NCBI GenBank assembly: GCA_021814165.1 | Contig: JAKAIX010000002.1 | Location: 5,371-69,370, forward strand | Reading direction: 5' to 3' | DNA from: a bacterium | Lineage (GTDB): Bacteria > Patescibacteriota > Minisyncoccia > UBA6257 > GWB1-50-10 | Length of the DNA: 64,000 nt | Shown: piece by piece, positions 3,500 to 47,870 of the stretch | Layout of the letters: each line of letters opens with the position of its first letter | How positions within the stretch are numbered: position 1 is the first letter of the stretch | Program-made: the position numbers and the translations under genes | The notes under the pieces: model-generated | The model's database searches: none | Told to the model about the DNA's origin: nothing | Seen by the model: the letters and a program-made list of their open reading frames with translations, nothing else

Positions 3500-4489
3500 A
3501 TGGTTATTTCACGCACCCCATTCCGCATCTCTTTCTTCGGGGGAGGTACGGATTACCCGGTCTGGTACACGACTCACGGCGGCGCCGTACTTTCGACCTC
3601 GATTAATAAATATTGTTACGTTACCTGCCGGTATTCTCCCCTGATACTCGAAAAAAGATACAAAGTAGCGTGGTCCAAGGTAGAATCCGTAAACGATGTC
3701 GAAGAAATCGAGCACCCTGTCGTAAGGGAAACAATAAAGCTTTTCGAGTTGAAGGAAGGCGTGGAGGTGCACTATATAGCCGATCTTCCCGCGCGAACGG
3801 GAATGGGTTCGAGTTCTTCGTTCACGGTCGGCCTGATCCACGCGCTTCACGCGCTCCTCGGAAAAACCGTATCAAAAAACCAGCTTGCGAAAGAGGCGAT
3901 CCGCGTGGAACGCGAATTACTGAAAGAGAACGTCGGGTCGCAGGACCAGGTTGCCGCCGCTTTCGGAGGACTCAACAAAATCACCTTCAACGCGCGCGAC
4001 GGATTTTCCGTTCACCCTATCGTCTTATCACCGGAGAAACTTGCGACACTGGAGAGCAACTTGCTCCTTCTTTTCACCGGTTTCTCAAGAAATACTTCCG
4101 AGATAAGTCAGGAGCAAATTAAGAACACTCCCTTGCTCGAGAGGGAGCTCACGAGGATGACTTCCATCGTCGATGAGGCTATAGAGATATTGAACGACTC
4201 CACGGAACGGCTCGACGATTTCGGACGCCTTCTCGACGAAGCGTGGCGGCTGAAACGGTCTTTCTCCTCCGTTATTACGCGCCCGGAGATCGATGAAATA
4301 TACGAGGCGGGAAAAAAGGCGGGAGCGCTTGGAGGAAAACTTCTCGGCGCGGGAGGAGGCGGCTTCATGCTTTTTTATGCAAAACCCGAAGTGCATGATG
4401 CAATCCGAAAAGCGCTGAAAAAATTTTTCTTCGTCCCCTTCCAGTTCGAGCATGCGGGAAGCCAAATCATACATTACCACCCCGACTGA
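3500..4489 (+). CDS. GHMP-family sugar kinase, HddA-like (D-glycero-D-manno-heptose 7-phosphate kinase candidate)
   Basis: 329 aa; GHMP motif PARTGMGSSSSFTVGLIHAL; C-terminal GAGGGGFMLFY motif; immediately followed by a sugar-1-P nucleotidyltransferase. Confidence 0.7.
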   Translation: MVISRTPFRISFFGGGTDYPVWYTTHGGAVLSTSINKYCYVTCRYSPLILEKRYKVAWSKVESVNDVEEIEHPVVRETIKLFELKEGVEVHYIADLPARTGMGSSSSFTVGLIHALHALLGKTVSKNQLAKEAIRVERELLKENVGSQDQVAAAFGGLNKITFNARDGFSVHPIVLSPEKLATLESNLLLLFTGFSRNTSEISQEQIKNTPLLERELTRMTSIVDEAIEILNDSTERLDDFGRLLDEAWRLKRSFSSVITRPEIDEIYEAGKKAGALGGKLLGAGGGGFMLFYAKPEVHDAIRKALKKFFFVPFQFEHAGSQIIHYHPD

Positions 4490-13309: not shown

Positions 13310-14044
13310 TCACGCGTTTCCGGAATCAAAATTATGGTATTTCTTCGCAACGAAGAGATTTGCCTTGAGAAGCCAGTAGAAGTTCCCGCAATCGAACCAT
13401 TCCCCTTTCAGTTTAAAGTAACTCAATTCGCCTCGCTCGAGATATACGCGATTAACATCCGTAATCTCGTACTCGCCCCGCTTTGAGGGCTTGAGCGTAT
13501 CGATGACATCGAATACATCGGGGTTGTACATATAAATCCCCACCGCGCACCAATTCGATTTCGGCGCAACGGGTTTTTCTTCTATGTCGATTACTTTTCC
13601 GTCTTTCATCTCGACGACGCCGTAATCCCGCGCCTCCGGATGCTCCTTGAGAAAAATGGCTGCCCCCTTCATTTTTTGGAACGCTTGAACCGGCTCTTTT
13701 AAGGAATCTTCGAATACGTTGTCGCCAAGTACCATGATGATTTTTTCTCCCTGGGCGAAATCTTTTGCGAGGCGGAGCGCATCGGCAAGACCGTTCGGAG
13801 CAAGCTGCACCGCATACCGAAGCCGCGCGCCGAGCCCCGATCCGTTATCGAGCAGGCTCGTAAAATGACTCATGTATTCGCCGCTTGTGACGATTAAGAT
13901 GTCGGTAACGCCCGCTTCGACGAGTTTCTCGATTGGAAAATAAATGAGCGGCTTGTTGTATACCGGCAAAAGGTGTTTGTTCGTGACCGCGGTCAAAGGA
14001 TGAAGACGCGATCCCGATCCCCCTGCTAAAATGACTCCTTTCAT
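13310..14044 (-). CDS. rmlA: glucose-1-phosphate thymidylyltransferase-like (short-form RmlA family)
   Basis: MKGVILAGGSGSRLHPLT N-terminus, 244 aa, directly downstream of rmlB. Confidence 0.75.
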   Translation of the reverse strand: MKGVILAGGSGSRLHPLTAVTNKHLLPVYNKPLIYFPIEKLVEAGVTDILIVTSGEYMSHFTSLLDNGSGLGARLRYAVQLAPNGLADALRLAKDFAQGEKIIMVLGDNVFEDSLKEPVQAFQKMKGAAIFLKEHPEARDYGVVEMKDGKVIDIEEKPVAPKSNWCAVGIYMYNPDVFDVIDTLKPSKRGEYEITDVNRVYLERGELSYFKLKGEWFDCGNFYWLLKANLFVAKKYHNFDSGNA

Positions 14045-28969: not shown

Positions 28970-29064
28970 AATTACCAATTTTTCAATTTCCAATGATCAA
29001 TTAATTTTAAAATCGTTCAATTGAATTATTCATTGAAAATTGGAAATTGGTCATTGAAAATTTA
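28970..29064. repeat. intergenic inverted heptad-array element, copy A
   Basis: Left arm ttttcaatttccaatgatcaatt; AT-rich spacer; right arm cattgaaaattggaaattggtcattgaaaat; fills the whole stop-to-start gap. Confidence 0.8.
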
Positions 29065-30420
29065 TATCTCTTTCTTTTGCTTTTGTTCTCTGACTTCGAT
29101 AAACAGATAGGTGGCAAACCCAAGGAACAAAAATACGTTCAGATAGATCGGCAGCACGTCAAAAAGCGCGACTCCCTGCCCCAGATATCCCATGGGAATT
29201 GCGAGGAGGAGCGCAACGAAGAGATAACCATACGGATGAAGATGCGCGACGATGCTCCGCCGATGCTTCACCAGCTGCGAGAAAAACACCACAAAGATTC
29301 CCAGAAAGCTCAGGAGCCCCAAAATGCCCGTCTCCGCGAGATAATCAAAATACACGCTGTGCGCTCTATCAAACCACGTCTCGGAATGCTGGTCCGGAAC
29401 GAAGTGCCGCGTGTCGAGATATTTGTCAAAAACGACGCCGAAGTTTTCCGGCCCCCATCCCAAAAGCGGGCGTTCTTCCCAGCCCTTTATCGCCGACCCC
29501 CACGTCCAAAGACGGGTCTGCGCGGTTTTATCCGAGGTCGATACGTCAAGGAGACGGCTTGAGGATTCGCAGAAAGGGACGAGCGGAATACTCTCGTGAC
29601 GGAACGTGAAAGCGAGCGCCGCGAATACGATGCAGATCCCGGCGAGCGCAACCGAAATTTTCTTCCCTTTCCCTTGGGGAAGCGCAAACGCGAGATAAAG
29701 GAGCGCCGCGATAATACCGAGGCCGAACCCCAAGAGCGCGCCGCGCGTTTGAGAAAGAAGGAAAAATAACAAAAGGACGACAAGAAGCGCGGCGAAGAAC
29801 ACGTTTCTTTTCCCGTTCGATTTTTTTGAAAACCACAGCCACGACGCGTAAAACATCATGAACATAAGGTAGGGCGCAAGGTACGCCGGATTGCCGAACG
29901 ATCCGGCAATCCGGTCGCAAAATCCCGCGGGACCGATGAACGAGTTGATTCCGAGCGACGCGGCAATCCCGTAAAGAATCACCAACCCCGATGCGGCGAG
30001 CGAGAGCGTAAAAACCCATTTCCATTCCGCTCTGCTGCGAAACAGAAGCAACAAGAGCAGGAAGAAAACGTAGAAATGGAGCATCTGAAGCCCCCCGTCA
30101 CCGCGCTCGAAGTTCGACCAGAATGCCGCACCCGAGTCATAGGCGAAAAGCGACGCAAGAAGGAATACCAGCACGAAAGCGGAGACCGCAATAAACAGCG
30201 GGTGGCGGAATATCTGTTTTGCGCGCACCTTGAGCGTCTCCCACTCTCCCTTTGAAAAAATAACTCCCAGAAGGAATGAAATAAGCGCGAGATCGACGAT
30301 ACCGCGGAAGAACACGTACTTCCCCACCACAAAGGGGAAGAGCGTCGAGTTGGTAACGAGCGCAACACAGAATACGGAGATATAGAGAAGAATGCGAGAG
30401 AGTTTGAAGTAGTTAAACAT
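29062..30420 (-). CDS. Wzy_C / O-antigen-ligase-family polytopic membrane protein (PglL-like O-oligosaccharyltransferase candidate)
   Basis: 452 aa, about 10 to 12 TM helices, typical O-antigen ligase domain architecture. Confidence 0.55.
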   Translation of the reverse strand: MFNYFKLSRILLYISVFCVALVTNSTLFPFVVGKYVFFRGIVDLALISFLLGVIFSKGEWETLKVRAKQIFRHPLFIAVSAFVLVFLLASLFAYDSGAAFWSNFERGDGGLQMLHFYVFFLLLLLLFRSRAEWKWVFTLSLAASGLVILYGIAASLGINSFIGPAGFCDRIAGSFGNPAYLAPYLMFMMFYASWLWFSKKSNGKRNVFFAALLVVLLLFFLLSQTRGALLGFGLGIIAALLYLAFALPQGKGKKISVALAGICIVFAALAFTFRHESIPLVPFCESSSRLLDVSTSDKTAQTRLWTWGSAIKGWEERPLLGWGPENFGVVFDKYLDTRHFVPDQHSETWFDRAHSVYFDYLAETGILGLLSFLGIFVVFFSQLVKHRRSIVAHLHPYGYLFVALLLAIPMGYLGQGVALFDVLPIYLNVFLFLGFATYLFIEVREQKQKKEI

Positions 30421-30423
30421 AAC

Positions 30424-30532
30424 AGTGAATTATCAATTTTCAATTTCCAATGATCAATTGATTTTAAAATTATTTAATTGAATCATTTATCGAAAATTGG
30501 AAATTGGCCATTGAAAATTTATACTCCTTTCC
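30424..30532. repeat. intergenic inverted heptad-array element, copy B
   Basis: caattttcaatttccaatgatcaattg ... cgaaaattggaaattggccattgaaaat; between a stop (30541) and a start (30420). Confidence 0.8.
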
Positions 30533-33051: not shown

Positions 33052-33120
33052 AGGAGTAGTTTACAACAAAAAATCTTGATTTCAAATTTCAATATTAGGA
33101 GGAGGAGTGTAATAGGAGGA

Positions 33121-36627: not shown

Positions 36628-37136
36628 ACGAAAATAAGCTTGCTCGTCGTTATTTGCCGTATGAATGATTGTTCTTGTATATATTCGATATTTGTTGTTC
36701 GTTCACAGCAAAGTGTTTCTTTGCCGTGCCGTCGACCTTTAAGGGTTTTCAGGAACGCCGTAGTCATTCCCGGCTTGTCGACCCCCGTCTTTGTGAGGAG
36801 AAGGCGGCGGAAGCCAAGGAAGCGGCGTATTAGTATCAAAAAAACAGAAAATCTCGCTTTGGAGCGAGACCTATTATAACCCGAGTACGCAGTATACTCC
36901 TTCGGCCGAGACACCCATCACCGAATCGAGCATATTCGGAAACGGATGACTCAACCAAAGGATTGCGCCTTTCATGGGTTAGTCGGGCCTCACTCCCTTC
37001 TAACTCTTCTTATAGTATACCAAATTACAGGAATTTTCCGAGCGCTGCAAGCGCCTCTTTCTCCACAGCTATTTCAGTACATTATCTATAACGAAAAAGG
37101 GGTGTTTTTTGTTACGAGAAGGCCTGCAGGAAGGTT

Positions 37137-37223
37137 GTATTTCCACACTACATTCCCCTTACTCGGGCGCTCCGGGCCGCTTGGCCAAGTCTTACCCTCG
37201 TTCGGAGAATGTAGTGTGGAAAT
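37137..37223. other. long perfect hairpin (17-bp stem) enclosing a 42-nt core identical to a second copy at 46066-46112 (inverted orientation)
   Basis: Stem atttccacactacattc / gaatgtagtgtggaaat; core actcgggcgctccgggccgcttggccaagtcttaccctcgttcg. Confidence 0.8.
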
Positions 37224-37269
37224 CTAAAAGTGTGCATTCTCTCCAAAAAAACGAGGAGAGAAATAAAAA

Positions 37270-38058
37270 TCAAGGTAAAAGCCACGGAGCGGTGGCGAAA
37301 AGGATACTCGCAAAGACCGCGAAAAAGGTAAGCTCCTTGAGAATAAAAGAGAACGAAAGGGTGCCCTCAAAATGCATAAGAAGGGCGTCCCGAAGGAGGA
37401 TAAGCACCACTGCGAGAAACGCGCCGGCGTTCAGGAACCCGAGGGGGAGAAAGAGCGCGAGTGCCGCTATTTCGGAGGCGAGGAGGCCCAGGGAGACGGC
37501 CGTGAGGCGGAGTGAACGCGAGATCGCGACGCCCAGGAACGAGAACGCTTCCTTTATAAGGAGGGTGGTTACCAAAAACACCGCAAGGAGCCAGAAAAAA
37601 AGCGGGAAAAACGCCTCGCGCCCCAGTGAAGGGGCAAAGTAGAAAAACTCGACGAAGGTAAAGAAAAGAATCACCGAATGGACAAGCCGATACCAAAGCG
37701 GCCGTTCCGCAATCACATAATTCAGGTTGCCGAGCACGAGATACAAAAGCGCGCCGAATCCGAGAAATGCCAGCACCTCCATTATCGTCGCGATGAAGAA
37801 AGAAGGGAGGGAGAACGTGATGGCGTAGAGGCCGAGGAGTGCCGCTATCCCGAGAACCCAAAAGGAGACGCGGATTACCTCGCGGCCGGAGCGCTCGGAA
37901 CGGTATATCCACGCGAGAACCGCGAAATACACGAGGGAGCCGAAAAAGGAAAACCCGAGGAGATAAGCAAATCCGAGCGCTGCCACTGCTCCGAGAGACT
38001 TATACAGTAACCTCCACTTGGTCTCCTTTGGTAAGGATGACAGTAGCTTTTGTACCAT
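37270..38058 (-). CDS. hypothetical polytopic membrane protein
   Basis: 262 aa, about 8 TM helices, no recognisable motifs. The N-terminal 59 nt overlap the clpB 3' end, so the true start may be downstream or non-ATG. Confidence 0.45.
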
Positions 38059-40660
38059 CTCGGAGCGTGCCGCGGACTATTTTGTCCGCGAGTGCGTCGA
38101 CAATCACTTTTTGGATAAGCCGCTTCACGGGGCGGGCGCCGTAATCGGGATCAAAGCCGTGTTCTATAATGTAGCGTTTTACCTCCGGTTTGATCTGGAG
38201 CGTAATCCCCTTCTCGAGAAGGCGGGCTTTTACTTCGCCAAGCTGAATATCCACGATTTTCTCGATGTCTTCGGGAGAAAGCGCATTGAAGATGATTATT
38301 TCGTCCAGACGATTCAAGAATTCCGGCTTGAAGGTTTCGCGGAGCGAATCCATGACCCGTTCCCCGAACTGTTCTTCCTTCTCCCGCAACGCCTCCCCGC
38401 CGCGGCCAACCTTGAAACCCAAGGAGGACATCTCGCGGAAATATTCGCTTCCCACGTTCGAGGTAAGAATGATGACGGCGTTCTTGAAGTTTGCAATCTT
38501 TCCTTTCGAGTCGGTAAGCCGTCCGTTGTCCAATACCTGAAGCAGAATGTTAAATACCTCGGGATGCGCTTTCTCGATTTCATCGAAGAGGATTAAGCTG
38601 TACGGTCGATGGCGGATCATGTCGGTAAGCCGCCCCCCTTCGTCATACCCTACGTAACCGGGCGGCGAGCCGATGAGACGGGACACCGAGTGCCGTTCCA
38701 TATATTCCGACATATCGATTCTGATTAAGGATTTCTCATCATTGAACATGAATTCCGCGAGCGCGCGGGCGAGTTCCGTTTTTCCGACGCCGGTCGGCCC
38801 CAGAAACATAAACGACCCCGCCGGCTTGTCTTCGTCGGCAAGTCCGGCGCGCGAGCGACGGAGCGCGCGGGCGACGGAATCGATCGCCTCTTCCTGTCCC
38901 ACGACGCGACGGCGGAGTTCCTCCTCGATTCTCGCGAGTTTTTTCATCTCGGATTCGAGCATCCGGGAAACGGGTATCCCCGTCCAGCGGGAAACGACGG
39001 CGGCGATGTCTTCTTCATCCACCACTTCTTTTATGAAGAATTCGCGTTTGTGCGTTTTTGTACGCGCACCCGCGCTCGTTTTCACGCGCAGCTGTTTTTC
39101 GAGATCGCCGTACCGCTTTTCGATTTTCGGATACTCCCCGTAACGGATCTCCGCGACCCGATCGAAGTTCCCTTCCCGTTCCGCAATCTCCGCTTCGCGC
39201 TTCAAATCCTCCATCGCCTTCCTGATGGTATGAAGCGAACCCACCCCCGTTTTTTCTCCCTCCCAGAGGGCGGTGAGTCTCGCGTTCTCGGCTTTCAACT
39301 TTTTCAAATCCCTGACCACCTCCTTGAGGCGCGCGGTTTTCTTGGAACTCTGCTCCTTGTGGAGCGCGGACTTTTCTATTTCGAGACGGGTGATTTCCCT
39401 CCTGATTTTCTCGATCCCCTCGGGAACGCTGTCGGATTCGAGACGCCGCGCCGCGGCCGCCTCGTCAATCAAATCCACCGCCTTATCGGGAAGAAATCTG
39501 TCGGTGATATAACGCGCACCCAAATTCACCGCCGCGACGATCGCCTCGTCGGTGATCTTCAAGCCGTGGTGGGTTTCATACTTCTCCTTGAGCCCGCGGA
39601 GAATCGCGATCGAATCGTCGACCGAGGGTTCTTCGACAAGGATCGGCTGGAATCTGCGTTCGAGTGCGGCGTCTTTCTCGATATACTTCTGGTATTCCTT
39701 CAAAGTGGTCGCTCCGATTGCGTGAAGCTCTCCCCGCGCGAGCGCTGGTTTCAAGAGGTTTGACGCATCGATTGCCCCTTCCGCGGCACCCGCACCCACA
39801 ATCATGTGGATCTCATCGATAAAAAGGATGATGCGCCCTTCCGACTCGCGGACTTCCTTCATAAACGCCTTGAATCTGTCTTCAAACTCTCCTCGGAACT
39901 TCGTGCCCGCAATCAAGGACCCCAGATCGAGCATGATAATTTCTTTCCGTTTTAAGGACTCGGGCACGTCGCCGGAGACGATGCGCTGCGCCAATCCCTC
40001 CACAATCGAGGTTTTTCCGACCCCCGGCTCACCAATCAGCACGGGGTTGTTTTTCGTGCGCCGCGAGAGAATTTGCATGAGACGACGGAGCTCGTCCTCG
40101 CGTCCGATCACCGGGTCGAGTTTTCCGCCGCGCGCTTTTTCCGTAATGTTCACCGCGTATTTTTCGAGTACCTGGAATTTCGCTTCCGGCGTTTCGTCCG
40201 TCACCCGCGTCGAACCGCGAAGCCCTGCAAGCGTTCGCATTAATATGTCCTTGCGCGCGCCGAAATGAGAAAGCACGTCCTGCGCCACGGACGGAATATC
40301 GGAGAGTGAGACCAAGAGATGTTCGCACGAGATAAACTCGTCTTTCTGCTTCATCGCAATTTCTCCCGCCTTATCCAGGATGCGCATCAATTCTTGGGAA
40401 AGATAAAGCTGCCCCACCGCGCCTTGGGAAGAAAAAATTTTCGGGAGCTTGTCGAGCGTCGTTTTCACTTCGCGTTCGAGTTCCGCGAGATTCACGTTTG
40501 CGCGAAGAAGAAGCGGCCTTACGAGCGTCTGCTCGTCGTCGAGGAGCGCGGCTAAAAGATGCAGCGCCTTGAGCTCGCCGTGATTGTAGCGCGCAACCGC
40601 CTCCTGCGCTCCCTGGAGCGCTTCCTGCGCCTTGATGGTAAAACGTTGAAAGTTGGGCAT
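38000..40660 (-). CDS. clpB: ATP-dependent chaperone ClpB
   Basis: 886 aa; Clp N-domain, two AAA+ modules ([16 protein letters not shown] Walker A), and a long middle coiled-coil domain characteristic of ClpB. Confidence 0.95.
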
Positions 40661-40663
40661 AGA

Positions 40664-40760
40664 ACGAGAATTTTCAATTTCCGATTATCAATTTTCAGGA
40701 CTTGTTTTGAAAATTGGTTTATTGGAAATTCACTGAAAATTGGAAATTGATAATTGAAAA
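40664..40760. repeat. intergenic inverted heptad-array element, copy C
   Basis: ttttcaatttccgattatcaatttt ... cactgaaaattggaaattgataattgaaaat; abuts the clpB start codon (12 nt upstream). Confidence 0.8.
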
Positions 40761-40848
40761 TCAATTACTCATTACACTACGTTACATTATACGTCATCCT
40801 ACTCTTTTTTTGTAAGATTAGCAAGCAAGCAACCCGAGTGCTAATTTT

Positions 40849-42105
40849 CTACTCCCCCTTCGGCCGGGCTTCAAGCGTAACGGATAGGTCGAGCGTTTTG
40901 TCTCCTCTCTGCACCTTAAGCGTAATCGTGTCGCCAACGTTGTAACGCCCTACGAGATCGATAAGCGAGTGGTCCTGATCCACTCCCACCCCGTTCACCT
41001 CGAGCACGATGTCTTCCGCCTTGAGTCCCGCCTTCGCCGCCGGAGAATCGGGAATAACGGCCGGTCCGTTCCCCGATCCGCGGAGCAATGCGCCATGATC
41101 GGCGGCAAGCTTCTGCGAACTTGCCATATCGGAGGTGATTGCCATATAACGGACGCCCAGATACGGAGTTTTGATATCTCCCGTCGCTTTCACCGATCGT
41201 ATATCGCGTTTCGCCTGATTCACGGGTATCGCGAAACCGATGTTCTGGGCGCCGGAAGCGATCGCGGTATTAATACCGATAACTTCTCCCTGAAGATTCA
41301 GGAGCGGGCCGCCGGAATTTCCCGGATTGATTGCCGCATCGGTTTGAATAACTCCCTGGATTGTTTCGGAACCGATCGTATTCCCGGATGCGGTAATCGT
41401 TCTTTGAAGTCCCGAAATAACGCCCACCGAAACCGTGTTTCGGAATTCTCCCAGCGAATTTCCGATCGCGATTGCGGTCTGCCCGAGTTCCAGCGCATCG
41501 GAATCCCCGAGCTGTACTACGGGCAGATGTTCGGCGTCGATCTTCAAAACCGCGAGATCCTGCACCGGATCGCGGGCGAGTACTTTTGCGGGATATTTCT
41601 TCCCGCTATTCGTGAGCACCGTATAATCGGCGCTTGTGTCGCTCACGACGTGTTTGTTCGTGAGTATGAGCCCGTTCTCCGAGATGATGAACCCCGATCC
41701 GCCCCCGACCTCCTGATATTTCGTACCCTTTTCGCATGGTTGCGAAAATTGAGGTCCTTGTATGAAGAATCCTCTAAACTCCGGGGGAAGGTTTTCAAAG
41801 GGATCATAGGGGCAGTTTTCAATAACCGGCAGGTCCTTACTGATAACAATGGATACGACGGAAGGCGAAGCTTTTTTCACCGCGCTCACTACCGCCCGTT
41901 CGTAATCGACGGTAGGAGCATAGAGCGGCGGCGTGGTAGTTGAGACGCTGGCGGAAGGCTGCACGGTTTCCGTCGAACTTCCCTTGAGAAAGTTCCAGAT
42001 GTCGCCAAGGATGCTCGCGCGCGCGGAGCCCGCCGAGGCGAGCGATCCCGCGACTCCTCCCAAAAAACCGGCAATAAGAACTGCTACGAGAATCTTCTTC
42101 TGCAT
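40849..42105 (-). CDS. HtrA/DegP-family serine protease with PDZ domain
   Basis: TNKHVV (His), GNSGGPLLN (Ser) and a C-terminal PDZ domain; N-terminal TM anchor. Confidence 0.85.
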   Translation of the reverse strand: MQKKILVAVLIAGFLGGVAGSLASAGSARASILGDIWNFLKGSSTETVQPSASVSTTTPPLYAPTVDYERAVVSAVKKASPSVVSIVISKDLPVIENCPYDPFENLPPEFRGFFIQGPQFSQPCEKGTKYQEVGGGSGFIISENGLILTNKHVVSDTSADYTVLTNSGKKYPAKVLARDPVQDLAVLKIDAEHLPVVQLGDSDALELGQTAIAIGNSLGEFRNTVSVGVISGLQRTITASGNTIGSETIQGVIQTDAAINPGNSGGPLLNLQGEVIGINTAIASGAQNIGFAIPVNQAKRDIRSVKATGDIKTPYLGVRYMAITSDMASSQKLAADHGALLRGSGNGPAVIPDSPAAKAGLKAEDIVLEVNGVGVDQDHSLIDLVGRYNVGDTITLKVQRGDKTLDLSVTLEARPKGE

Positions 42106-42208
42106 ACTACGCTGGAATTATGCGAAACACTTGATGATAGCAGGCGCGCGAACGGGCGATAATGAAACCGCCCTTCGCTCACCTTCATGATGTACTACTC
42201 TTTTCTCC

Positions 42209-43003
42209 CTATTTTATTTCGTATCGCAACGTCACAGTCACATTCACTTCCTGGGAACCCGGCTCGATCGCGGGAGCGGGCGCTGCTGCTTCGATTCCTC
42301 CCAAACCGCTCACCGTCGCTTTCATACTCCTCATATTATCGTAGTAGAGCGGACCGTACCCCGACTCATCAACCGAAAGAAGGCGTCCTATCGAAAAGCC
42401 CGCCGCGTCGGCGATCCCTTCCGCTTGCACCTTTGCTTTTTCTATCGCGTCGGCGCGCGCATCATTTTTCGCTTTTTCGGGATCATCGATCGTAAACTGG
42501 AGCTGGGAAACGGTGTTTGCGCCGTTCTTCACTACGCCCGAGAGAATGTCACCGATTTTCGAGAAATCCCGGATCTTCACGTCGACATTCTGGGTTACGG
42601 TATACCCTACGATCTCCGCCGGCGGACAGGGCTGGGCGCTCCCGCTTACATACTGCCCGCAATTGTAATACTGGTAGCGCGGGGTGATGGAATAGCCGCT
42701 CGTCTTCACGTCTTTTGCATTAACGCCGCTTGATTTCACGAAATCGATCGCGTTATTCATCTTCTCCGTGTTGGTCTTCTGAAGCGATCCGACGTCCTTT
42801 CCTCCCTCCGTCGTCACGCTGAAATTAAACTCGGCAACGTCGGGAACCGTGACCACTTTTCCCTGCGCAGTCACCGTGAAACTCCGGAACGACGAGGGCT
42901 CGACCGAAGCCGAGTAGGTATTCACGTAACTTAATGCCGCATAGGCACCGACCAAAAGCGCAATCGTCAGCGCAACGTACATATACGATTTCGATTTATC
43001 CAT
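42209..43003 (-). CDS. SIMPL-domain (DUF541) protein, periplasmic/secreted
   Basis: N-terminal TM/signal; two-lobed SIMPL-like pattern; 264 aa. Confidence 0.6.
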   Translation of the reverse strand: MDKSKSYMYVALTIALLVGAYAALSYVNTYSASVEPSSFRSFTVTAQGKVVTVPDVAEFNFSVTTEGGKDVGSLQKTNTEKMNNAIDFVKSSGVNAKDVKTSGYSITPRYQYYNCGQYVSGSAQPCPPAEIVGYTVTQNVDVKIRDFSKIGDILSGVVKNGANTVSQLQFTIDDPEKAKNDARADAIEKAKVQAEGIADAAGFSIGRLLSVDESGYGPLYYDNMRSMKATVSGLGGIEAAAPAPAIEPGSQEVNVTVTLRYEIK

Positions 43004-43046
43004 ATTTTCTATTCCTATATGTTATTTTTCTTCGACCGAAGAATTA

Positions 43047-43146
43047 TAACATTTCGAATTTTCAATTTCCAATGGTCAATATTCAATCAATTTTTTAATT
43101 TGAGAATTTCAAAATTCACTGAAAATTGGAAATTGATAATCGAAAA
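43047..43146. repeat. intergenic inverted heptad-array element, copy D
   Basis: aattttcaatttccaatggtcaatatt ... cactgaaaattggaaattgataatcgaaaat; ends at the stop of the cysteine desulfurase gene. Confidence 0.8.
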
Positions 43147-44670
43147 TTACTCTCCGAGCAATTTTTTTATTCTCCTCACCGCCTCCCTTATTTCCTGTCT
43201 CGTTGTCGGCACACCGAAGCTAAACCGTATGCTCCCGCGGATGCGTTCCGACGGAAGTCCCAACGCCTCAAGCACGTGGGAGGGAACGAACGAGCGAGCG
43301 CTGCACGCCGAACCCGAGGATGCGGCGATGCCCGCCATGTCCATCTTCACCAAGAGATCTCCGGCAAACTCCGTCGGGAAATAGGCGTTTATGATGTGCG
43401 GTGCCATAATTCCTGATTCCTTATTCCCGATTCTTAATTCATTATCACCGTTCATCGATGCCTGCGGATATATTTTTTTCAACTCTCTCCAGAAGTAGTT
43501 CCTGACCTCCGTCACTTGCTTTGCGTGTTTCGCGCGTCCCTTCTCCGCGAGCATGGCCGCATTCCCGAATCCTACAATCGCGGGAACATTTTCCGTTCCC
43601 GAACGGAACCCAAATTCCTGGCCGCCCCCCGTCACGAATGGAATTAGGAATTTTGAATTATGAATTATGGCTCCGTCACGTTTCACCCCTAATTCCTTAT
43701 TCCTAATTCCTGATTCCTGTCCCTTTATTCCTGATTCTTGATTCTTAACGAAGAGCGCGCCCGCTCCCTTCGGGCCGTAGATCTTCTGGGAGGATAACGT
43801 CATGAGGTCAACGCCGAGCCGTCCCACGTCGCACTTGAAATATTCGAACGCCTGGGCGGCATCCACATGCAGGAGCGGATATGCCTCTCCTGCAAATCCA
43901 AAATCCAAATGACCAATGTAAAATGGACGAATCGTCGGCTGATGTGCTTTTAACATTGTGCTTTCAGCTATTGATTTGGCATTCAGCGTTTGAAATTTGG
44001 CATTTCTAAAATTTCTGATGACTTCAGAAATTTTAGAAATTGGCTGTACGCTCCCTATCTCGTTATTCACGTACATAACGGACACGAGCACTGTCCGTTC
44101 ATCAAGCATCGTTTCGAGTTTTTTCAAATCAACAATTCCCCTCTTATCGACGGGAAGTACCGCAACTTCCACGCCGTCCTTCTCGAGGGCGTACGCGGTA
44201 TCCAGCACCGACTCGTGTTCAATCGCCGAGACGATAACCTTTGGACGAAAGCCACGAGTTATACTTCCCTTCCGTCGCCCCCCTAATTCCTTATTCCCTG
44301 CCTGCCTGCGCAGGCAGGCCTGCGCAGGCAGGTTTATTCCTGACTCCCGTCCTCTTATTCCTGATTCCCATTCCCTGGTTCCGAAAACAACACCGCGGAG
44401 TGCGAGGTTGTTTGCCTCGGTTGCGCCCGAGGTGAATATTACTTCACGAAATTCCGCATGGATCGCTTTCGCGATCGTCTCCCGTGCGGCATCGATCGCC
44501 GCAATCGCCTCCTGTCCGAATGAATGCAATGATCCGGGGTTCCCGAATGTATCCGAGAAGTACGGTTCCATCACGCGCTTTACTTCCCGCAGAACGGGCG
44601 TGGAGGCGGCGTAATCTAAATAAATCTTCAGAGATTGTTTCTTCATTTTTTCGTTACCCTTAGACACCAA
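43147..44670 (-). CDS. cysteine desulfurase (class V aminotransferase, NifS/IscS-like) carrying four in-frame insertions
   Basis: DYAASTP, SGATEANN, SSQKIYGPKG (PLP Lys) and SSGSACS (catalytic Cys loop) are all conserved. At 507 aa it is about 110 aa longer than typical, because of palindromic DNA inserts. Confidence 0.8.
   Translation of the reverse strand: MVSKGNEKMKKQSLKIYLDYAASTPVLREVKRVMEPYFSDTFGNPGSLHSFGQEAIAAIDAARETIAKAIHAEFREVIFTSGATEANNLALRGVVFGTREWESGIRGRESGINLPAQACLRRQAGNKELGGRRKGSITRGFRPKVIVSAIEHESVLDTAYALEKDGVEVAVLPVDKRGIVDLKKLETMLDERTVLVSVMYVNNEIGSVQPISKISEVIRNFRNAKFQTLNAKSIAESTMLKAHQPTIRPFYIGHLDFGFAGEAYPLLHVDAAQAFEYFKCDVGRLGVDLMTLSSQKIYGPKGAGALFVKNQESGIKGQESGIRNKELGVKRDGAIIHNSKFLIPFVTGGGQEFGFRSGTENVPAIVGFGNAAMLAEKGRAKHAKQVTEVRNYFWRELKKIYPQASMNGDNELRIGNKESGIMAPHIINAYFPTEFAGDLLVKMDMAGIAASSGSACSARSFVPSHVLEALGLPSERIRGSIRFSFGVPTTRQEIREAVRRIKKLLGE
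44297..44332. repeat. perfect GC palindrome inside the cysteine desulfurase CDS
   Basis: cctgcctgcctgcgcaggcaggcctgcgcaggcagg; translated in frame as LPAQACLRRQAG. Confidence 0.8.
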
Positions 44671-44679
44671 ACAAAGAAG

Positions 44680-44835
44680 ATGATTGCCCTCTATAAAATC
44701 CTAAACTCAAAATCCTAAATCCTAAACAATTACCAAAAAATAAAAACCCGGATATCCGAAACACGGGTTTTCGAAATTCGAATTTCTGTCATTGAAATTT
44801 GTTTAGAGTTTAGCGCTTAGGGTTTAGGATTTTCC
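44680..44835. terminator. large palindromic intergenic structure: CCTAAA/TTTAGGG-type heptad arms flanking a rho-independent terminator hairpin (44742-44770)
   Basis: aaaacccg-gatatccgaaaca-cgggtttt flanked by aaatcctaaactcaaaatcctaaatcctaaac and gtttagagtttagcgcttagggtttaggatttt. Confidence 0.55.
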
Positions 44836-44844
44836 CATCCCCTT

Positions 44845-45324
44845 TTACTCTTCTTTCTTCGTCTCCTTGTCAATAAATCTGTTAATGCTCGGCAAGCGGG
44901 AGATCCAAAGCGTTACGCTCATGCCGAGCGCGGCAATTACCGCAAACTCCAGGAGCCCTATCCCGCACAACACCCCGATCGCGGCGACGAACCAAATCGT
45001 GGCCGCGGTGGTGAGTCCGCGCACGTGTACCCCCTGTTTCACGATAATCCCGGCTCCCAAGAATCCCACTCCCACGATCACATTCGCGATAACCGCAAAG
45101 AAACCGCTGTTCCTCGCGATGATATCGGTGAGGTGCGTCGGAGAAAACGCGACGAGATACGGGAGGGACATTCCCACGATCGAAAAGATTGCAGCACCCG
45201 CGGCGACCATCATGTCGGTTCGGAGTCCCGCTTCCTTCCCCGCGAACTGCCGCTCGACACCCATAATGAGCCCGAGGAGTGCGGCGAGCGCGAGACGGAT
45301 AAGCATTTGTTCGAGAGTTAACAT
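44845..45324 (-). CDS. MgtC/SapB-family membrane protein
   Basis: Motif GLIMGVERQFAGKEAGLRT is the MgtC signature. The first ATG is at 45324 (MLTLEQ...); the track ORF start at 45351 is a TTG within element E. Confidence 0.7.
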   Translation of the reverse strand: MLTLEQMLIRLALAALLGLIMGVERQFAGKEAGLRTDMMVAAGAAIFSIVGMSLPYLVAFSPTHLTDIIARNSGFFAVIANVIVGVGFLGAGIIVKQGVHVRGLTTAATIWFVAAIGVLCGIGLLEFAVIAALGMSVTLWISRLPSINRFIDKETKKEE

Positions 45325-45334
45325 GATTTCATTA

Positions 45335-45431
45335 TAATGCTCAATTTCCAATGATCAATTTTCAATCAATTTTTTAATTCGAAAATTTTAAAATCGACTG
45401 AAAATCGGAAATTGATAATTGAAAATTCTCG
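45335..45431. repeat. intergenic inverted heptad-array element, copy E
   Basis: ctcaatttccaatgatcaattttcaat ... gactgaaaatcggaaattgataattgaaaat; contains a palindromic ATTATAAT box 9 nt upstream of the mgtC-like ATG. Confidence 0.8.
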
Positions 45432-46007
45432 CTATTTGTATTTCGGGTTTTTCTCTTTCACGCGAAGCACGTAGTTCGCAAAACGGGCAAGCGCGAAGAG
45501 TGCGCTTGAAAGACGGTTCATAAACTGAAGGAATTCCTTCGAGAACGCCGCACGTTTTCCGAACGCGACCGCGGAACGTTCCGCACGACGGGAAATCGCC
45601 CGCGCAATATCGAGCATGGCGGAAAGCTCGCTTCCTCCCGGCAGCACAAAATTGCGGAGCGTGGGGAGTATGGCGTCGATTTTTTGTATCGCGTGCTCGA
45701 GCCGCGCCGTCTTCGCTTCCGTGATGCGCGGAATAGCTTTCATCGAGTAAGAAAACCCGACTGCGGCGGCTTCCGCCTGCGCGATAAAAAGATCTTCCTG
45801 CAGATGTTCGAGCGACTCGAATATCAGCGATCCCGCTTTTTTCTTCGAGAGCGTTTTCTTCGCCTCAACCGCACAAAGCCCGATCCATGAATTCAATTCA
45901 TCCAGATTTCCGAGAAGCTCAAAAAGCGCATCGTCCTTCCCGATACGTTTGTTGCCGAAGGCGCTTTGTCCTTTGTCCCCATGCCCTGTGAAAAATCGCG
46001 TTTTCAT
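45432..46007 (-). CDS. PduO-type ATP:cob(I)alamin adenosyltransferase (Cob_adeno_trans family)
   Basis: TGHGDKGQSAFG..RI.K N-terminus and LDELNSWIG motifs; 191 aa. Confidence 0.75.
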   Translation of the reverse strand: MKTRFFTGHGDKGQSAFGNKRIGKDDALFELLGNLDELNSWIGLCAVEAKKTLSKKKAGSLIFESLEHLQEDLFIAQAEAAAVGFSYSMKAIPRITEAKTARLEHAIQKIDAILPTLRNFVLPGGSELSAMLDIARAISRRAERSAVAFGKRAAFSKEFLQFMNRLSSALFALARFANYVLRVKEKNPKYK

Positions 46008-46047
46008 GATCCTTTTAATTATAACATTCCGCCCTCACTATAACTCT

Positions 46048-46130
46048 CTCTGTGCCGCACCTTCCCGAACGAGGGTAAGACTTGGCCAAGCGGCCCGGAG
46101 CGCCCGAGTGAAGGAAGGTGCGGCACAGAG
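46048..46130. other. long perfect hairpin (18-bp stem) enclosing the same 42-nt core as 37137-37223, in opposite orientation
   Basis: Stem ctctgtgccgcaccttcc / ggaaggtgcggcacagag; the core is the reverse complement of the copy-1 core, identical over 42 nt. Confidence 0.8.
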
Positions 46131-46171
46131 ACCTACCATCTCCCACTCCTTTCTGTTATTTTGAAAGAGAC

Positions 46172-46852
46172 ATGGATAAGAACGGCAAGTTCTTCGTGAT
46201 CGAGGGACCCGACGGAAGCGGAAAGACGGAGCAATTCAAGCTCCTCGCCGCGCGGCTTCCGCGCGAGGGATACCCCGTCGTAACGTTCGATTTTCCCCGA
46301 TACGATCGGGAATCCTCTTTCTTCGTGCGCGAATATCTGAACGGGGTATACGGCGGATGGCGGGACGTGGGACCGCGAAAGGCGTCGATCTTCTATGCGC
46401 TGGACCGGTTCGATGCGGCGCCGGAAATACGCGAAGCAAAGGCGCGCGGGGCTATAGTGCTCTCGAACAGATATGTCGCTTCGAATCTCGGTCATCAGGG
46501 AGCGAAACTCCCGACCTCGGAACAAAAAGATTTTTTTGAATGGGATTACCGCTTCGAGTTTTCCGAGCTCGGCATTCCCCATCCCGATCTGAATATCATT
46601 CTTCACGTGCCCGCGGAAGTCTCGTTCAAACTCATCGAGAAAAAAGGAAGGCGCGAGTATCTAAAGGGTGCGCGAAAAGACGTTCACGAAGAGGATATCG
46701 AACATTTGAAGGCCGCCGAAGAGGCATATCTCTTCATGGCAAAACTCTGGCCCGAGGAATACACGGTGATCGAGTGCGCGGAGAACGGGAAGCTCTTTTC
46801 CATCCAGGATATCCACGAACTGATCTGGGAAGCGGTGCGCAAAAAGTTCTGA
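46172..46852 (+). CDS. tmk: thymidylate kinase
   Basis: Start at MDKNGKFFVIEGPDGSGKT (P-loop); DRY-like motif; 226 aa. Confidence 0.9.
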   Translation: MDKNGKFFVIEGPDGSGKTEQFKLLAARLPREGYPVVTFDFPRYDRESSFFVREYLNGVYGGWRDVGPRKASIFYALDRFDAAPEIREAKARGAIVLSNRYVASNLGHQGAKLPTSEQKDFFEWDYRFEFSELGIPHPDLNIILHVPAEVSFKLIEKKGRREYLKGARKDVHEEDIEHLKAAEEAYLFMAKLWPEEYTVIECAENGKLFSIQDIHELIWEAVRKKF

Positions 46853-46868
46853 GGGAGCGTCGGCTTCG

Positions 46869-47870
46869 TCAGTGGATTATACGATCCGCTCTATCCAAAA
46901 GACCTTCGGGTACCGTGATGCCTGCCTTCTGCGCTGCGCGGTAATTCACTTCCAGGAGACTTTCCGCAGACACGACGGGAATGGTGCCTGCGGGAATTCC
47001 CCGCAAGATCTTATCCGCCAGAGCGGCCGCCTGTTTGCCTACGTAATTGGTATTGATGGAGATGCCAAACACCGATTCATAACCGCCGACTGCCATAAGA
47101 GTTCCCCCGATGGGGATGTTTCGCTCGCTCGCGAATTCGCCCATCACTTCGAATGAATCCGGAGTCACCGCAAGCGGCTCGGAAATGAGCAATATCGCGT
47201 CCGGACTCTCTTTTTTTGACTGTACAAGCGACTGGAATTCGGTTCGAAGTTCCGCGGCGCTGGAAGCGGGGATATCGGTAAGTGCGACGCCCGCGGCGGC
47301 GATTGCGGGCCGCAATGCCTTGAGCTGGCTTTCCATAATCGAATAACCCCTCTGATACGGTATCCATATGCGTTTCATTTTCGGAACCAATTCATGCATA
47401 ACCTCGAAACGCCTGAGCGACAGATCGGGTCCCGGATACCGCACGCCCGTGATATTGCCGCCTGGTTCCGTAACGCTTTGTACGAGATTTACTCCCTCGA
47501 TATTCGCGTTCCCGAACACGACGGGGATTCCCGTTCCCTCGGTAACCTTTTTTGCGAGGATGGATGCTTCGGTAGGAAACACGAAAATAAGATCAACCTT
47601 GTCGGCGACGAACTTATAAAGAATGCGGCTGTAAGCGGTTTCGTCGAAATTGGTTTTCCATTCGTCGTACCGGACGTTTTTCCCCTCCGCATACCCGAGT
47701 TCCCGCATTCCCTCCTTGAATCCTTCCGCGGTGTCGGAAAAAAAATCGAGACCCGAAAGAATCCCGATACGGTAAACTTTCTCCGTCTCTTGGGAGGTAG
47801 CAAGAAAGTAAATGCCGGCGGCCACCAGAAGTACCGTTATTATCGCTCCAACCGCGAGCTTTCTACTCAT
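46869..47870 (-). CDS. ABC-transporter substrate-binding protein (COG2984 / ABC_sub_bind family)
   Basis: N-terminal TM/signal; YRIGILSGLDFF..; no cognate permease or ATPase adjacent. Confidence 0.65.
   Translation of the reverse strand: MSRKLAVGAIITVLLVAAGIYFLATSQETEKVYRIGILSGLDFFSDTAEGFKEGMRELGYAEGKNVRYDEWKTNFDETAYSRILYKFVADKVDLIFVFPTEASILAKKVTEGTGIPVVFGNANIEGVNLVQSVTEPGGNITGVRYPGPDLSLRRFEVMHELVPKMKRIWIPYQRGYSIMESQLKALRPAIAAAGVALTDIPASSAAELRTEFQSLVQSKKESPDAILLISEPLAVTPDSFEVMGEFASERNIPIGGTLMAVGGYESVFGISINTNYVGKQAAALADKILRGIPAGTIPVVSAESLLEVNYRAAQKAGITVPEGLLDRADRIIH

Follow-up and report, generated by a model that had tools for sequence, protein, structure and literature searches.

The window (the whole 64,000-nt stretch of DNA that was analysed) comes, by its ClpB relatives, from a genome of the ultra-small candidate phyla radiation (CPR) bacteria, like the other hosts of the family described here, and contains two hairpins with an identical core. 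Copy 1 lies about 47 nt past the stop codon of a 262-aa ORF (37270-38058, minus strand), and copy 2 in the spacer between a divergent PduO-type adenosyltransferase gene (45432-46007, minus strand) and tmk (46172-46852, plus strand). The initial annotation had given the same gene context, with copy 1 47 nt 3' of a gene end and copy 2 in the divergent promoter region before tmk. The features of the window are as follows.

33101..33119, minus strand: solo arm (reverse complement CCTCCTATTACACTCCTCC), 3' of the terminator of a 1150-aa gene, probable decayed relic of the element
37139..37223, sense strand minus: copy 1, type-B subfamily, covariance-model match of 97.3 bits at 37134-37226 (-)
37139..37155: copy 1 stem arm, pairs with 37207-37223, homologous to other type-B arms
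37161..37204, minus strand: copy 1, 44-nt segment identical in both copies (exact match)
37168..37194, minus strand: copy 1, family-wide apical module UAAGAC-UU-GGCC-AAGC-GGCC-C-GG-AGCG
37207..37223: copy 1 opposite stem arm, 17-bp stem
46048..46130, sense strand plus: copy 2, type-B subfamily, covariance-model match of 103.5 bits at 46044-46136 (+)
46048..46065: copy 2 stem arm, pairs with 46113-46130 in a perfect 18-bp stem
46066..46109, plus strand: copy 2, shared 44-nt segment (exact match)
46076..46102, plus strand: copy 2, family-wide 27-nt apical module
46113..46130: copy 2 opposite stem arm, 18-bp stem

The 44-mer ACTCGGGCGCTCCGGGCCGCTTGGCCAAGTCTTACCCTCGTTCG was found exactly twice in the window, at 37161-37204 (+) and 46066-46109 (-), and a second copy arose by chance in 0 of 100 shuffles. 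Both stems are perfect inverted repeats, of 17 bp in copy 1 (37139-37155 / 37207-37223) and 18 bp in copy 2 (46048-46065 / 46113-46130); the arm sequences of either copy had no further occurrence elsewhere in the window. Against shuffled sequence both hairpins folded with z-scores of -5 to -8; the values were -51.2 kcal/mol (z -7.4) for the minus strand of copy 1, against -42.1 for its plus strand, and -58.1 kcal/mol (z -7.9) for copy 2. Exact search, shuffles and folding thus bore out the two hairpins with identical core and perfectly paired stems that had been annotated initially, with two corrections: the core as quoted there measures 44 nt instead of 42 nt, and the hairpin of copy 1 starts at 37139, not at 37137. 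On the sense strand the 44-nt segment of copy 1 consists of CGAACGAGGG, the 27-nt tip and CCCGAGU; in copy 2 a GA-rich internal loop (CGAACGA / GAGUGA) is seen on the flanks of a GGG:CCC helix. An intrinsic (Rho-independent) terminator was rejected on the length of the loop module (27-44 nt) and the lack of a T run behind either window copy. The same copy-2 sequence is carried by two independent NCBI MAG assemblies, with orthologues in FK3.bin18 (L054) and GCA_900218215 (L232:2466-2558).

Both hairpins belong to a large and old family of interspersed hairpin repeats, which the sampling so far places in Patescibacteria/CPR only. The search for more copies of the core that had been proposed returned hundreds: about 40 Patescibacteria/CPR genomes had the core 21-mer, at more than 108 loci in all, and a compensated core variant was present at more than 120 further loci in metagenomes. 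The hosts range from Saccharibacteria to Gracilibacteria; a genome can carry up to 17 or more copies, with only about 20-40 in some lineages, while other lineages yielded one or none. Near-identical copies occur at separate loci of one genome (L030/L107; L008/L095/L103). Scanning the window with Rfam release 15 at gathering thresholds matched only 5 tRNAs, a permissive Rfam scan of copy 2 gave only miRNA-like noise (E >= 0.2), no copy of the core was found in phage and plasmid collections, and no match to this repeat was found in the literature. With hundreds of copies and a core that belongs to no known IS end or Rfam family, the grounds for refutation given at the outset did not apply; the repeat is previously undescribed and very widespread in CPR bacteria.

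The unit is the whole hairpin, which measures about 85 nt in the window and reaches about 200 nt at other loci. Its arms (median length about 38 bp) can have any sequence so long as they pair, and are followed by a GA-rich internal loop and a near-invariant tip of 24-27 nt, NNN-GACUU-[GGCC-NAGC-GGCC]-CGGAGCG, composed in this order of a 3-nt variable bulge, GACUU, the GGCC-NAGC-GGCC mini-hairpin and CGGAGCG. Conserved unpaired bases are purine-rich and include tandem G.A motifs. Within a subfamily the arms are homologous and the flanks turn random exactly at the arm ends; in type B this homology covers the two window copies and 15 others. The stems had been described as completely different, as if fully replaced, a description that did not hold: a MAFFT alignment of the 18 arm columns of the two copies gave 7 identities, 10 transitions, 0 transversions and 1 gap, whereas unrelated arms would give identities, transitions and transversions in a ratio of 1:1:2, and the divergence is mainly by compensated transitions. 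No conserved tetranucleotide was found at or beside the arm ends. Some type-A copies contain A/T runs within the stem.

Covariation was expected of a structured RNA or DNA element, and it was found. Among the 17 copies of the window's subfamily, double (compensatory) changes were present at 17 of 24 outer pairs, a number matched in 0 of 500 shuffles; 91.5% of pair positions were paired and 64 single pair instances were doubly changed. In the mini-hairpin of the tip, 124 of 125 GGGC variants have the matching GCCC and 1 is uncompensated. Orthologous copies differ by compensated changes, paired indels and G:U pairs only. The palindrome CTTGGCCAAG, noted initially, is indeed present in the core but is not the conserved feature: variants destroy it and yet keep the GGCC/GGCC mini-hairpin.

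The strands of the element are not equivalent. G:U outnumbered A:C by 92:28 overall, by 34:8 where the sole neighbouring gene is antisense, by 73:22 and 21:6 in the two GC-skew classes and by 108:48 in an independent metagenome set, and the sense strand had the more stable fold in 95 of 107 copies. Folding is strand-specific and independent of host transcription; a double-stranded cruciform, one of the forms initially proposed, is therefore not indicated. With GC skew computed on loci of <=8 kb and not on closed genomes, the element strand was the C-rich strand in 80 of 111 copies (p = 4e-6), whatever the local gene orientation, and the bias was repeated in the second (metagenome) set (67 of 96). 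The better-folding strand lies mostly on the expected leading-strand template, where single-stranded DNA is scarce, so that the link to replication could reflect survival and not mechanism.

Most copies are intergenic, though coding DNA dominates the CPR genomes of the family. They lie 0-30 nt from stop codons, and spacers between convergent genes are favoured. About one-sixth of the copies are within an ORF; each intragenic copy that was verified continues the reading frame without a stop codon, and three different frames or orientations are represented. Aminoacyl-tRNA synthetases and other core enzymes are lengthened by 25-60 residues in this way, with Pfam domains broken in ArgRS (twice), LysRS, CysRS, ValRS, QueA, PMT and methyltransferases; YchF also has an in-frame copy, seen as a 29-aa insert. 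No target-site duplication was detected (the longest direct repeats between flanks were distributed as in the control), nor was a target motif at insertion sites. No gene family was enriched beside copies and no transposase family recurred nearby. An IS200/RAYT-like ORF was sought in 1.7 Mb of fetched loci with no match, though this was a weak test.

Relatives differ in whether a copy is present. YchF alleles 97% identical occur with and without the 29-aa insert, the 329-aa alleles being without the whole hairpin, and decayed YchF inserts that have lost the core still keep the frame. Between L009 and L095 the entire hairpin is absent where a copy is absent, and orthologous spacers either have or lack a copy, or hold a different subfamily (palindrome). 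Relics of the family are core-less or single-arm. The solo arm at 33101..33119 is probably such a relic; at the matching site L232 has both arms and no core, which is better read as decay because relatives keep one arm only.

With a probability of about one-half, we interpret the repeat as a strand-specific, selfish and possibly domesticated palindromic element, whose recognised form is probably a hairpin of a single strand, most likely DNA. Such an element would be non-autonomous, would spread within genomes, and would be gained and lost at permissive sites. It would survive where it is least harmful, in spacers just past stop codons or translated in frame in tolerant protein loops, and would erode through deletion. 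The apical module would be the recognition site, perhaps the cleavage site, of a putative trans-acting factor conserved across CPR, which would read one particular strand as a single-stranded hairpin, most likely in DNA exposed in replication. Complementarity of the arms would be kept by compensatory substitution via G:T(U) intermediates, possibly with arm-to-arm templated correction. Mobility as the cause of the spread, the DNA rather than the RNA level and the existence of a partner protein are what we infer; no direct transposition event was observed, and no mobilising enzyme was found near copies. More tentatively, a putative CPR-wide enzyme might read the 24-nt tip to copy, move, invert or convert hairpins, by a new kind of structure-guided mobile-element or recombination mechanism in which the loop is conserved, the stems are free and no target duplications arise, or else the tip might be a universal CPR signal for replication or RNA handling on which the cells themselves rely.

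The alternative with the most in its favour, though we consider it only about half as probable as the selfish element, is a host-functional structured RNA, that is, a cis-acting or processed module with the tip as a protein-binding site and the intragenic copies as tolerated accidents; possible roles are a 3'-UTR stabiliser, a terminator, a site for an RNase or RNA-binding protein, or an intercistronic processing signal. At orthologous spacers the tip is almost unchanged, with 1/44 and 3-4/44 changes in the core of copy 2 at 43-46% difference in third codon (synonymous) positions, and such in-place conservation far beyond neutrality is explained by a host function or by gene conversion no less well than by selfishness. 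Tolerance of G:U and not of A:C and the purine-rich conserved loops with their tandem G.A motifs are equally typical of RNA, the RNA folding energies are very low, and the placement close to stop codons and the preference for spacers between convergent genes speak for such a module. Orientation, however, was unrelated to neighbouring genes (13 same and 22 opposite in tandem contexts; 50 and 61 overall) and followed GC skew instead; the flanks were random, with no upstream sequence conservation as a possible promoter; and the G:U bias remained at copies expected to be transcribed in antisense only. Essential genes contain in-frame copies of either orientation, which decay in place, relatives often have no copy or a different palindrome in the same spacer, and no Rfam family corresponds.

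That the hairpin is instead a host DNA signal in replication or recombination, kept by selection and spread by duplication without being selfish, appears improbable. Such a site, a single-strand hairpin that would serve in priming, fork handling, recombination or chromosome organisation, would agree with the GC-skew bias in two independent data sets, with strand-specific folding independent of transcription and with a tip conserved in place. Against this stand the low and uneven copy number (some lineages have only about 20-40 per genome and others yielded one or none), the interruption of essential genes, the turnover among close relatives and the roughly 28% of copies in the 'wrong' orientation relative to GC skew; the two window copies themselves, 9 kb apart, have opposite orientations with no skew switch in between.

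Somewhat less probable still is the other mechanism of the initial annotation, a mini-element in which only the core of about 44 nt (42 nt as first given) is mobile and lands in the loops of ready-made hairpins, such as terminators. Homologous flanks or outer stems do enclose hairpins of different subfamilies at one site (L065 vs L107; window copy 1 vs L232), L031 and L039 have another hairpin nested beside the core, and the core-less hairpin of L232 has type-B-like arms; these few cases leave room for a hotspot or nesting component. As a general rule it is not supported: the arms of the window copies and 15 others are mutually homologous and so are not local sequence, empty alleles are without the arms too, the flanks have no excess of outer stems, and the core-less hairpin is more readily taken as decay. 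Removal at the RNA level, by an intron-like or ribosome-bypass element cut from or skipped in the mRNA and so harmless in genes, is very improbable and already largely refuted: a long stem would draw the flanks together and copies do lie inside conserved domains of essential enzymes, but introns and bypass elements interrupt frames regardless of phase or stops, whereas every verified intragenic copy is in frame and stop-free in whichever of the three frames or orientations, core-less YchF inserts stay in frame, and most copies lie outside the coding DNA that dominates these genomes.

Such a repeat family is of interest in a group that makes up a large share of bacterial diversity, has tiny genomes and was previously thought repeat-poor. 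Few short non-rRNA sequences of CPR are as conserved as the tip, which implies a conserved partner, be it an enzyme or an RNA- or DNA-binding protein. In-frame copies account for some of the so far unexplained 'insertions' in CPR proteins, and they bear on annotation, structure prediction and the alignment of phylogenetic markers. The element is also a natural experiment in compensatory hairpin evolution, possibly by arm-to-arm templating, and GACTTGGCCAAGCGGCCCGGAGCG or its GGGC/GCCC variant is a simple sequence tag for spotting CPR DNA in metagenomes.

Several known systems resemble the element in part. Single-strand origins of the ssoA type in rolling-circle plasmids and the hairpin origins of HUH replicons are long strand-specific hairpins with a short conserved loop motif and differing stems; each plasmid or virus has a single one, whose part in priming or nicking is known, whereas the CPR element has dozens of chromosomal copies and none in phage or plasmid collections. 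MITEs (Correia, ERIC, BOX, RUP) are likewise non-autonomous, hairpin-forming interspersed repeats with subfamilies, copy bursts and sometimes intragenic copies, but they have target-site duplications, whereas direct repeats between the CPR-element flanks were distributed as in the control, and terminal inverted repeats shared with a parent IS. The CPR arms are inverted repeats that vary between copies, neither a parent IS nor a recurrent transposase was found near copies, and it is the loop and not the ends that is most conserved. Integron attC sites, which are recombination sites, share with it a folded single strand recognised by structure and not by sequence, variable paired stems, one active strand and an orientation bias relative to replication. 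The likeness, seen in the strand-specific folding and GC-skew orientation bias of the CPR element, is functional only: attC has conserved boxes (R''/R') at the stem base and a variable tip, the reverse of the arrangement here, and stands in tandem cassette arrays beside an integrase gene (intI), whereas CPR copies are single, dispersed and even intragenic.

REP/BIME sequences are short palindromic repeats near gene ends that lack target-site duplications; an HUH enzyme is presumed to act on them as single-stranded hairpins, and they have proposed roles in mRNA stability and termination (PMC3733652). REPs are 20-40 bp long and tagged at one end by GTAG or CGTC, whereas the CPR units are 85-200 nt long and without such a tetranucleotide; the REP stem is conserved within a genome, whereas here the stem varies and the loop is conserved; and REPs are strictly extragenic, unlike about one-sixth of the CPR copies. 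REPs also come with a cognate RAYT (Y1 HUH) gene; the weak search of 1.7 Mb of CPR loci matched none.

Rickettsia palindromic elements (RPE), of about 100-150 bp, are palindromic repeats of a bacterium with a reduced genome that lives on or in other cells; they are scattered in intergenic DNA and very frequently stand in frame in unrelated housekeeping genes, where they are translated, and the mechanism of their movement is unknown (PMC10969869). The CPR element is like them in its in-frame, stop-free copies in ArgRS, LysRS, CysRS, ValRS, YchF, QueA, PMT and methyltransferases. For RPE we know of no report of strand asymmetry or of a replication-linked orientation bias. RPE are conserved along the whole element, with a conserved peptide, and occur in Rickettsia only, whereas the CPR element conserves only its 24-27-nt tip and short internal loop, across a superphylum; its arms, and hence its peptides, vary, and this variability and the host range speak against its being one of the RPE families.

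The 44-mer ACTCGGGCGCTCCGGGCCGCTTGGCCAAGTCTTACCCTCGTTCG occurred exactly twice in the window, where no occurrence was expected by chance, and was enclosed each time by a perfect inverted repeat:

37161-37204, + strand, 44-mer of copy 1
37139-37155 / 37207-37223, inverted repeat of copy 1, perfect, 17 bp around the 44-mer
46066-46109, - strand, 44-mer of copy 2
46048-46065 / 46113-46130, inverted repeat of copy 2, perfect, 18 bp around the 44-mer

The identical core that the initial annotation had seen in two distant hairpins was thus confirmed, with a length of 44 nt instead of 42 nt and with copy 1 starting at 37139 instead of 37137; its gene context also held, copy 1 lying after a 262-aa ORF and copy 2 between a PduO-type adenosyltransferase gene and tmk. 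Both regions folded far more strongly than shuffled sequence, and the strand reading CGAACGAGGGUAAGAC... was the more stable one in both (-51.2 versus -42.1 kcal/mol for copy 1, -58.1 versus -54.5 kcal/mol for copy 2). The arm sequences had no further match anywhere in the window, so that stems acting as guides to other DNA were not supported, and a covariance-model search of the window for decayed copies recovered only the two known ones. Chance or an assembly artefact was ruled out, because the 44-mer was unexpected by chance, the window sequence was also found in two independent MAGs and diverged orthologues were present in related genomes. An Rfam scan, one of the checks suggested initially, returned no known RNA family at either site; full-text literature searches, the core sequence and its peptide translations included, gave no description of the element.

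For further copies, also suggested initially, bacterial assemblies (one genome per species) were searched with a 21-mer of the core, ACTTGGCCAAGCGGCCCGGAG. The matches listed comprised more than 108 loci and ~40 assemblies, with up to at least 17 loci within one genome, and all of them came from Patescibacteria/CPR (Saccharibacteria, Paceibacteria/Parcubacteria, Kaiserbacteria, Nomurabacteria, Minisyncoccia, Peregrinibacteria and Gracilibacteria) or from unclassified 'bacterium' MAGs syntenic with the window; judged by these matches, the family appears to span a superphylum. The window is itself CPR sequence: it matched NCBI MAG contigs, and the nearest proteins to its ClpB were from Minisyncoccia, Jorgensenbacteria and Paceibacterota. 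A phage or plasmid origin had no support, since a pattern search of IMG/VR viral contigs with the 21-mer gave no match and the element was absent from the INPHARED phage and PLSDB plasmid collections by blastn.

An apical module of ~27 nt, UAAGAC-UU-GGCC-AAGC-GGCC-C-GG-AGCG (the tip), was constant in all 110 copies displayed, its first three bases being variable. The surrounding sequence was an inverted repeat that differed in each copy (median 38 pairs, perfect paired runs up to 36-42 bp), and elements spanned up to ~200 nt. A second conserved module was an internal loop rich in G and A (5'-GAACGA / 5'-GAGUGA; possibly tandem G.A pairs), which was located ~20 bp from the tip in other subfamilies and was separated from it only by GGG:CCC in the subfamily of the window (type B), so that the 44-nt core corresponds to tip plus loop. 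The tip was compared by eye only with the tRNA D-arm, K-turn, sarcin-ricin, hammerhead and twister, none of which fits. At one Gracilibacteria locus (L081:820-910) a partial duplicate of the tip 3' half (ACGGCCCGGAGCGGTGCAC) lay ~60 nt upstream of the full element, and in two different genomes (L031, element at 350, -; L039, element at 1674, -) another hairpin of ~75 nt, with CGCTCG repeats on its flanks, was nested exactly between left arm and tip. Of 18 copies of a metagenome subfamily of ~170 nt with asymmetric outer arms, four (loci L203, L215, L144 and L213, versus L118 and others) had the tip apparently flipped relative to these arms; in L203, identity was 0.82 for left versus reverse-complemented right and 0.69 for left versus left, which suggests that the loop was inverted between the arms.

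Arms were aligned for 17 type-B copies from the window and the genomes clean1859 and FK3.bin18. Over ~19 nt they were alignable among all copies, with differences that were mainly transitions, and outside the arms identities, transitions and transversions occurred at a random ratio of ~1:1:2, so that the element unit has sharp ends. The stems of the two window copies, initially described as completely different, are homologous: 10 of 18 arm columns differ, and 10 of these 10 differences are transitions. Deaminase hypermutation was dropped as the cause of the transitions-only arms and is not invoked, because third codon positions give a genomic baseline transition:transversion ratio of ~2.6, close to the ~2.2 of the arms; arm evolution was slower than at synonymous sites. 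In the 17-copy alignment 91.5% of pair positions were paired, and double changes were found at 17 of 24 outer pairs (64 individual pair instances), which was equalled by none of 500 shuffles and bears out the covariation proposed for the stems. For the tip helix, metagenomes were scanned for the 5' half-stem variant GGGC with either 3' half allowed; compensating GCCC was present in 124 of 125 copies, and the sole copy with uncompensated GGCC was without a surrounding hairpin. Pairing in arms and tip is under constraint. Both core alleles, GGCC/GGCC and GGGC/GCCC, were found with the same arm types. The core palindrome CTTGGCCAAG pointed out in the initial annotation is present but incidental, since the GGGC/GCCC variant destroys it and keeps the pairing.

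Window positions 45454-47710 were aligned with the FK3.bin18 locus L054 at 75% identity, continuously through copy 2; third codon positions were ~45% different, the 44-nt core differed by one base and the arms by one double change, two paired indels and three G:U pairs, none of them disruptive. Copy 2 was also present in GCA_900218215 (locus L232, whose ClpB shares 91% identity and whose third codon positions are 43-46% diverged); its arms were homologous, every change in them was compensated, and its tip had 3-4 changes and kept its helix. So few core changes at ~45% third-position divergence indicate that the tip stays constant in place over long times, which could be due to selection or to conversion from other copies. 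Either selection or arm-to-arm templated correction of quasipalindromes, a mechanism known from E. coli, could account for the paired indels and the full compensation in the arms.

At the copy-1 position, the homologous flanks in L232 enclosed another element, which was type-A-like, and clean1859 and WY2.bin82 had no element. Clean1859 was without copy 2 and had a type-A element with GGGC/GCCC core in the MgtC/aminotransferase spacer (L233:1771-1863); in the same spacer of the window (44695-44833) another imperfect palindrome was seen, AAAATCCTAAA... / ...TTTAGGATTTT. The HtrA/ClpB spacer contained an element in clean1825 (L102 ~4380-4470) versus an AT-rich palindromic repeat (the 40668 copy) in the window, other syntenic pairs had the element present in one and absent in the other, and one spacer was occupied by a different subfamily in L065 than in L107. 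Recent spread is indicated by near-identical copies that lie at separate loci of a single genome (L030/L107; L008/L095/L103; also in the ~170-nt subfamily). Relics, all directly downstream of the terminator of the gene for the large PG-binding protein, were as follows:

L232:15526-15568, both type-B-like arms, 3-nt loop, no core
Window 33101-33119, single arm
Clean1859, L233 ~14015-14035, single arm

Other repeats and hairpins in the window were the following:

28980-29074, 30437-30531, 40668-40761, 43056-43160 and 45335-45439, second palindromic repeat family, AT-rich, ~95 nt, TTTTCAATTTCCAATGATCAATT..., in spacers
43407-43445, 43676-43749 and 44336-44393, short repeats, ~7-nt period, ATTCCTG / ATTCCTT, in or near ORF 43147-44670
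44300-44333, GC-rich 15-bp hairpin GCCTGCCTGCGCAGGCAGGCCTGCGCAGGCAGGT, flagged terminator-like though within ORF 43147-44670

Several copies of the AT-rich repeat had sigma-70-like hexamers, and the ~7-nt-period repeats at 43407-44393 were families D4 and D5.

Twenty-one of 113 copies were inside frames that stayed open for 60 codons or more to either side. Element-bearing genes confirmed by Pfam were ArgRS (two copies), LysRS (OB fold split), CysRS, ValRS, PMT, QueA and the TrmA/RumA-like and PrmC-like methyltransferases. The tip was read in three frames/orientations (KTWPSGPER, RLGQAARS, RSGPLGQVL); in the one forward frame left, the UAA of the tip was the stop codon of several upstream ORFs, and at L011, L040, L048, L095 and L098 it ended a long upstream ORF reading through the left arm. 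Saccharibacteria YchF homologues (at least 80% identity) were 329 aa or 343-388 aa long, with inserts at one loop, and one 329-aa YchF was 97% identical to an insert-bearing YchF outside the insert. Some inserts retained the element peptide, including the compensated GGGC/GCCC allele, and in others the peptide was lost and the frame still open; the inserts are therefore translated, variable in presence/absence and decaying. An intron or bypass element was rejected, because in-gene copies were in frame and core-less YchF inserts were still in frame. At the same loop, Saccharibacteria YchF proteins (P0012, P0019, P0023, P0025, P0026, P0119 and others) had numerous in-frame inserts of 14-59 aa that are unrelated, with tandem duplications in P0119 and P0025, and this surface loop appears to be an insertion hotspot beyond the hairpin element.

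Placement favoured gene 3' ends (23 convergent-gene versus 4 divergent-gene spacers), with stop codons often 0-30 nt from the arm end. Orientation was not tied to transcription, since it was the same as that of the genes in 13 tandem contexts versus opposite in 22, and coding within +/-2.5 kb was mostly on the element strand in 50 cases and mostly opposite in 61. Neither target-site duplications nor a target motif could be found at the copies; all-against-all clustering of 744 neighbouring ORFs gave only housekeeping families and no recurrent neighbour gene, and tblastn with approximate IS608 TnpA and E. coli RAYT queries, a weak test, found no IS200/RAYT-like ORF in 1.7 Mb of element loci. 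Small paralogous genes with a common conserved end, CTCCTGCAAACAGCGGAGAGAGAAACC, were seen in Saccharibacteria SRP287540_co2_289 (L001, L019, L035, L046, L092, L099), directly adjoined by several hairpin copies.

Arm mismatches, scored via an alignment blind to mismatch type, were G:U in 92 cases versus A:C in 28 on the UAAGAC... strand (p = 4e-9). The ratio was 34:8 where the sole adjacent gene was antisense, 73:22 and 21:6 in two GC-skew classes and 108:48 in an independent metagenome set. Mutation linked to replication or transcription was rejected as an artefactual source of the G:U excess, because the excess was found in both skew classes and beside antisense genes and was opposite to the expected deamination bias; as deamination would predict the reverse, the excess is read as selection for folding of the UAAGAC... 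strand. With RNA parameters this strand had the more stable fold in 95 of 107 copies; with DNA parameters the count was 74 of 105. GC skew of the locus on the element strand was negative in 80 of 111 copies (p = 4e-6), in 46 of 59 where skew was strong and in 67 of 96 in the metagenome set (p = 1e-4), and was independent of gene orientation, so that a by-product of gene orientation was rejected. The leading strand is G-rich in most bacteria, and if this applies here, the folding strand would mostly be the leading-strand template. The window copies are 9 kb apart in opposite orientations with no skew switch between them, and the orientation bias is therefore statistical, not absolute.

Together, the observations establish a strand-specific, structure-constrained hairpin repeat family with spread, turnover and decay like selfish DNA; the short tip is the only sequence requirement of the element. 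The favoured reading, given a probability of about 0.5, is a non-autonomous element that a conserved CPR factor recognising the tip would handle as a single-stranded hairpin, probably of DNA at the replication fork. The main rival, an RNA with a function for the host, is best supported by the in-place conservation of the tip and was considered unlikely, since the element has no tie to transcription direction, its orientation is linked to GC skew and copies are found inside genes. A DNA signal serving the host is improbable. Lower still stands a core-only element targeting hairpin loops, put forward initially as a 42-nt unit inserting into pre-existing loops: the arms are homologous among copies, the flanks had no general excess of outer stems, and no general nesting in older hairpins was found. 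Removal at the RNA level is very improbable. There is a real chance of a new mechanism behind the family.

The element belongs in kind with REP, RPE, MITE and attC-like hairpin elements and has the defining features of none; compared with usual hairpin elements the pattern is inverted, the loop being conserved and the stem free. If the leading strand is G-rich, the strand arrangement of the element relative to replication is that of attC sites in sedentary chromosomal integrons, whose recombinogenic strand is reported to be so placed in 25 of 30 cases, an arrangement proposed to restrict folding and excision (PMC5371416). In its translated in-gene inserts that vary and decay, the CPR element is like the Rickettsia palindromic elements, for which in-frame, translated, presence/absence-variable and decaying inserts have been described (PMC10969869).
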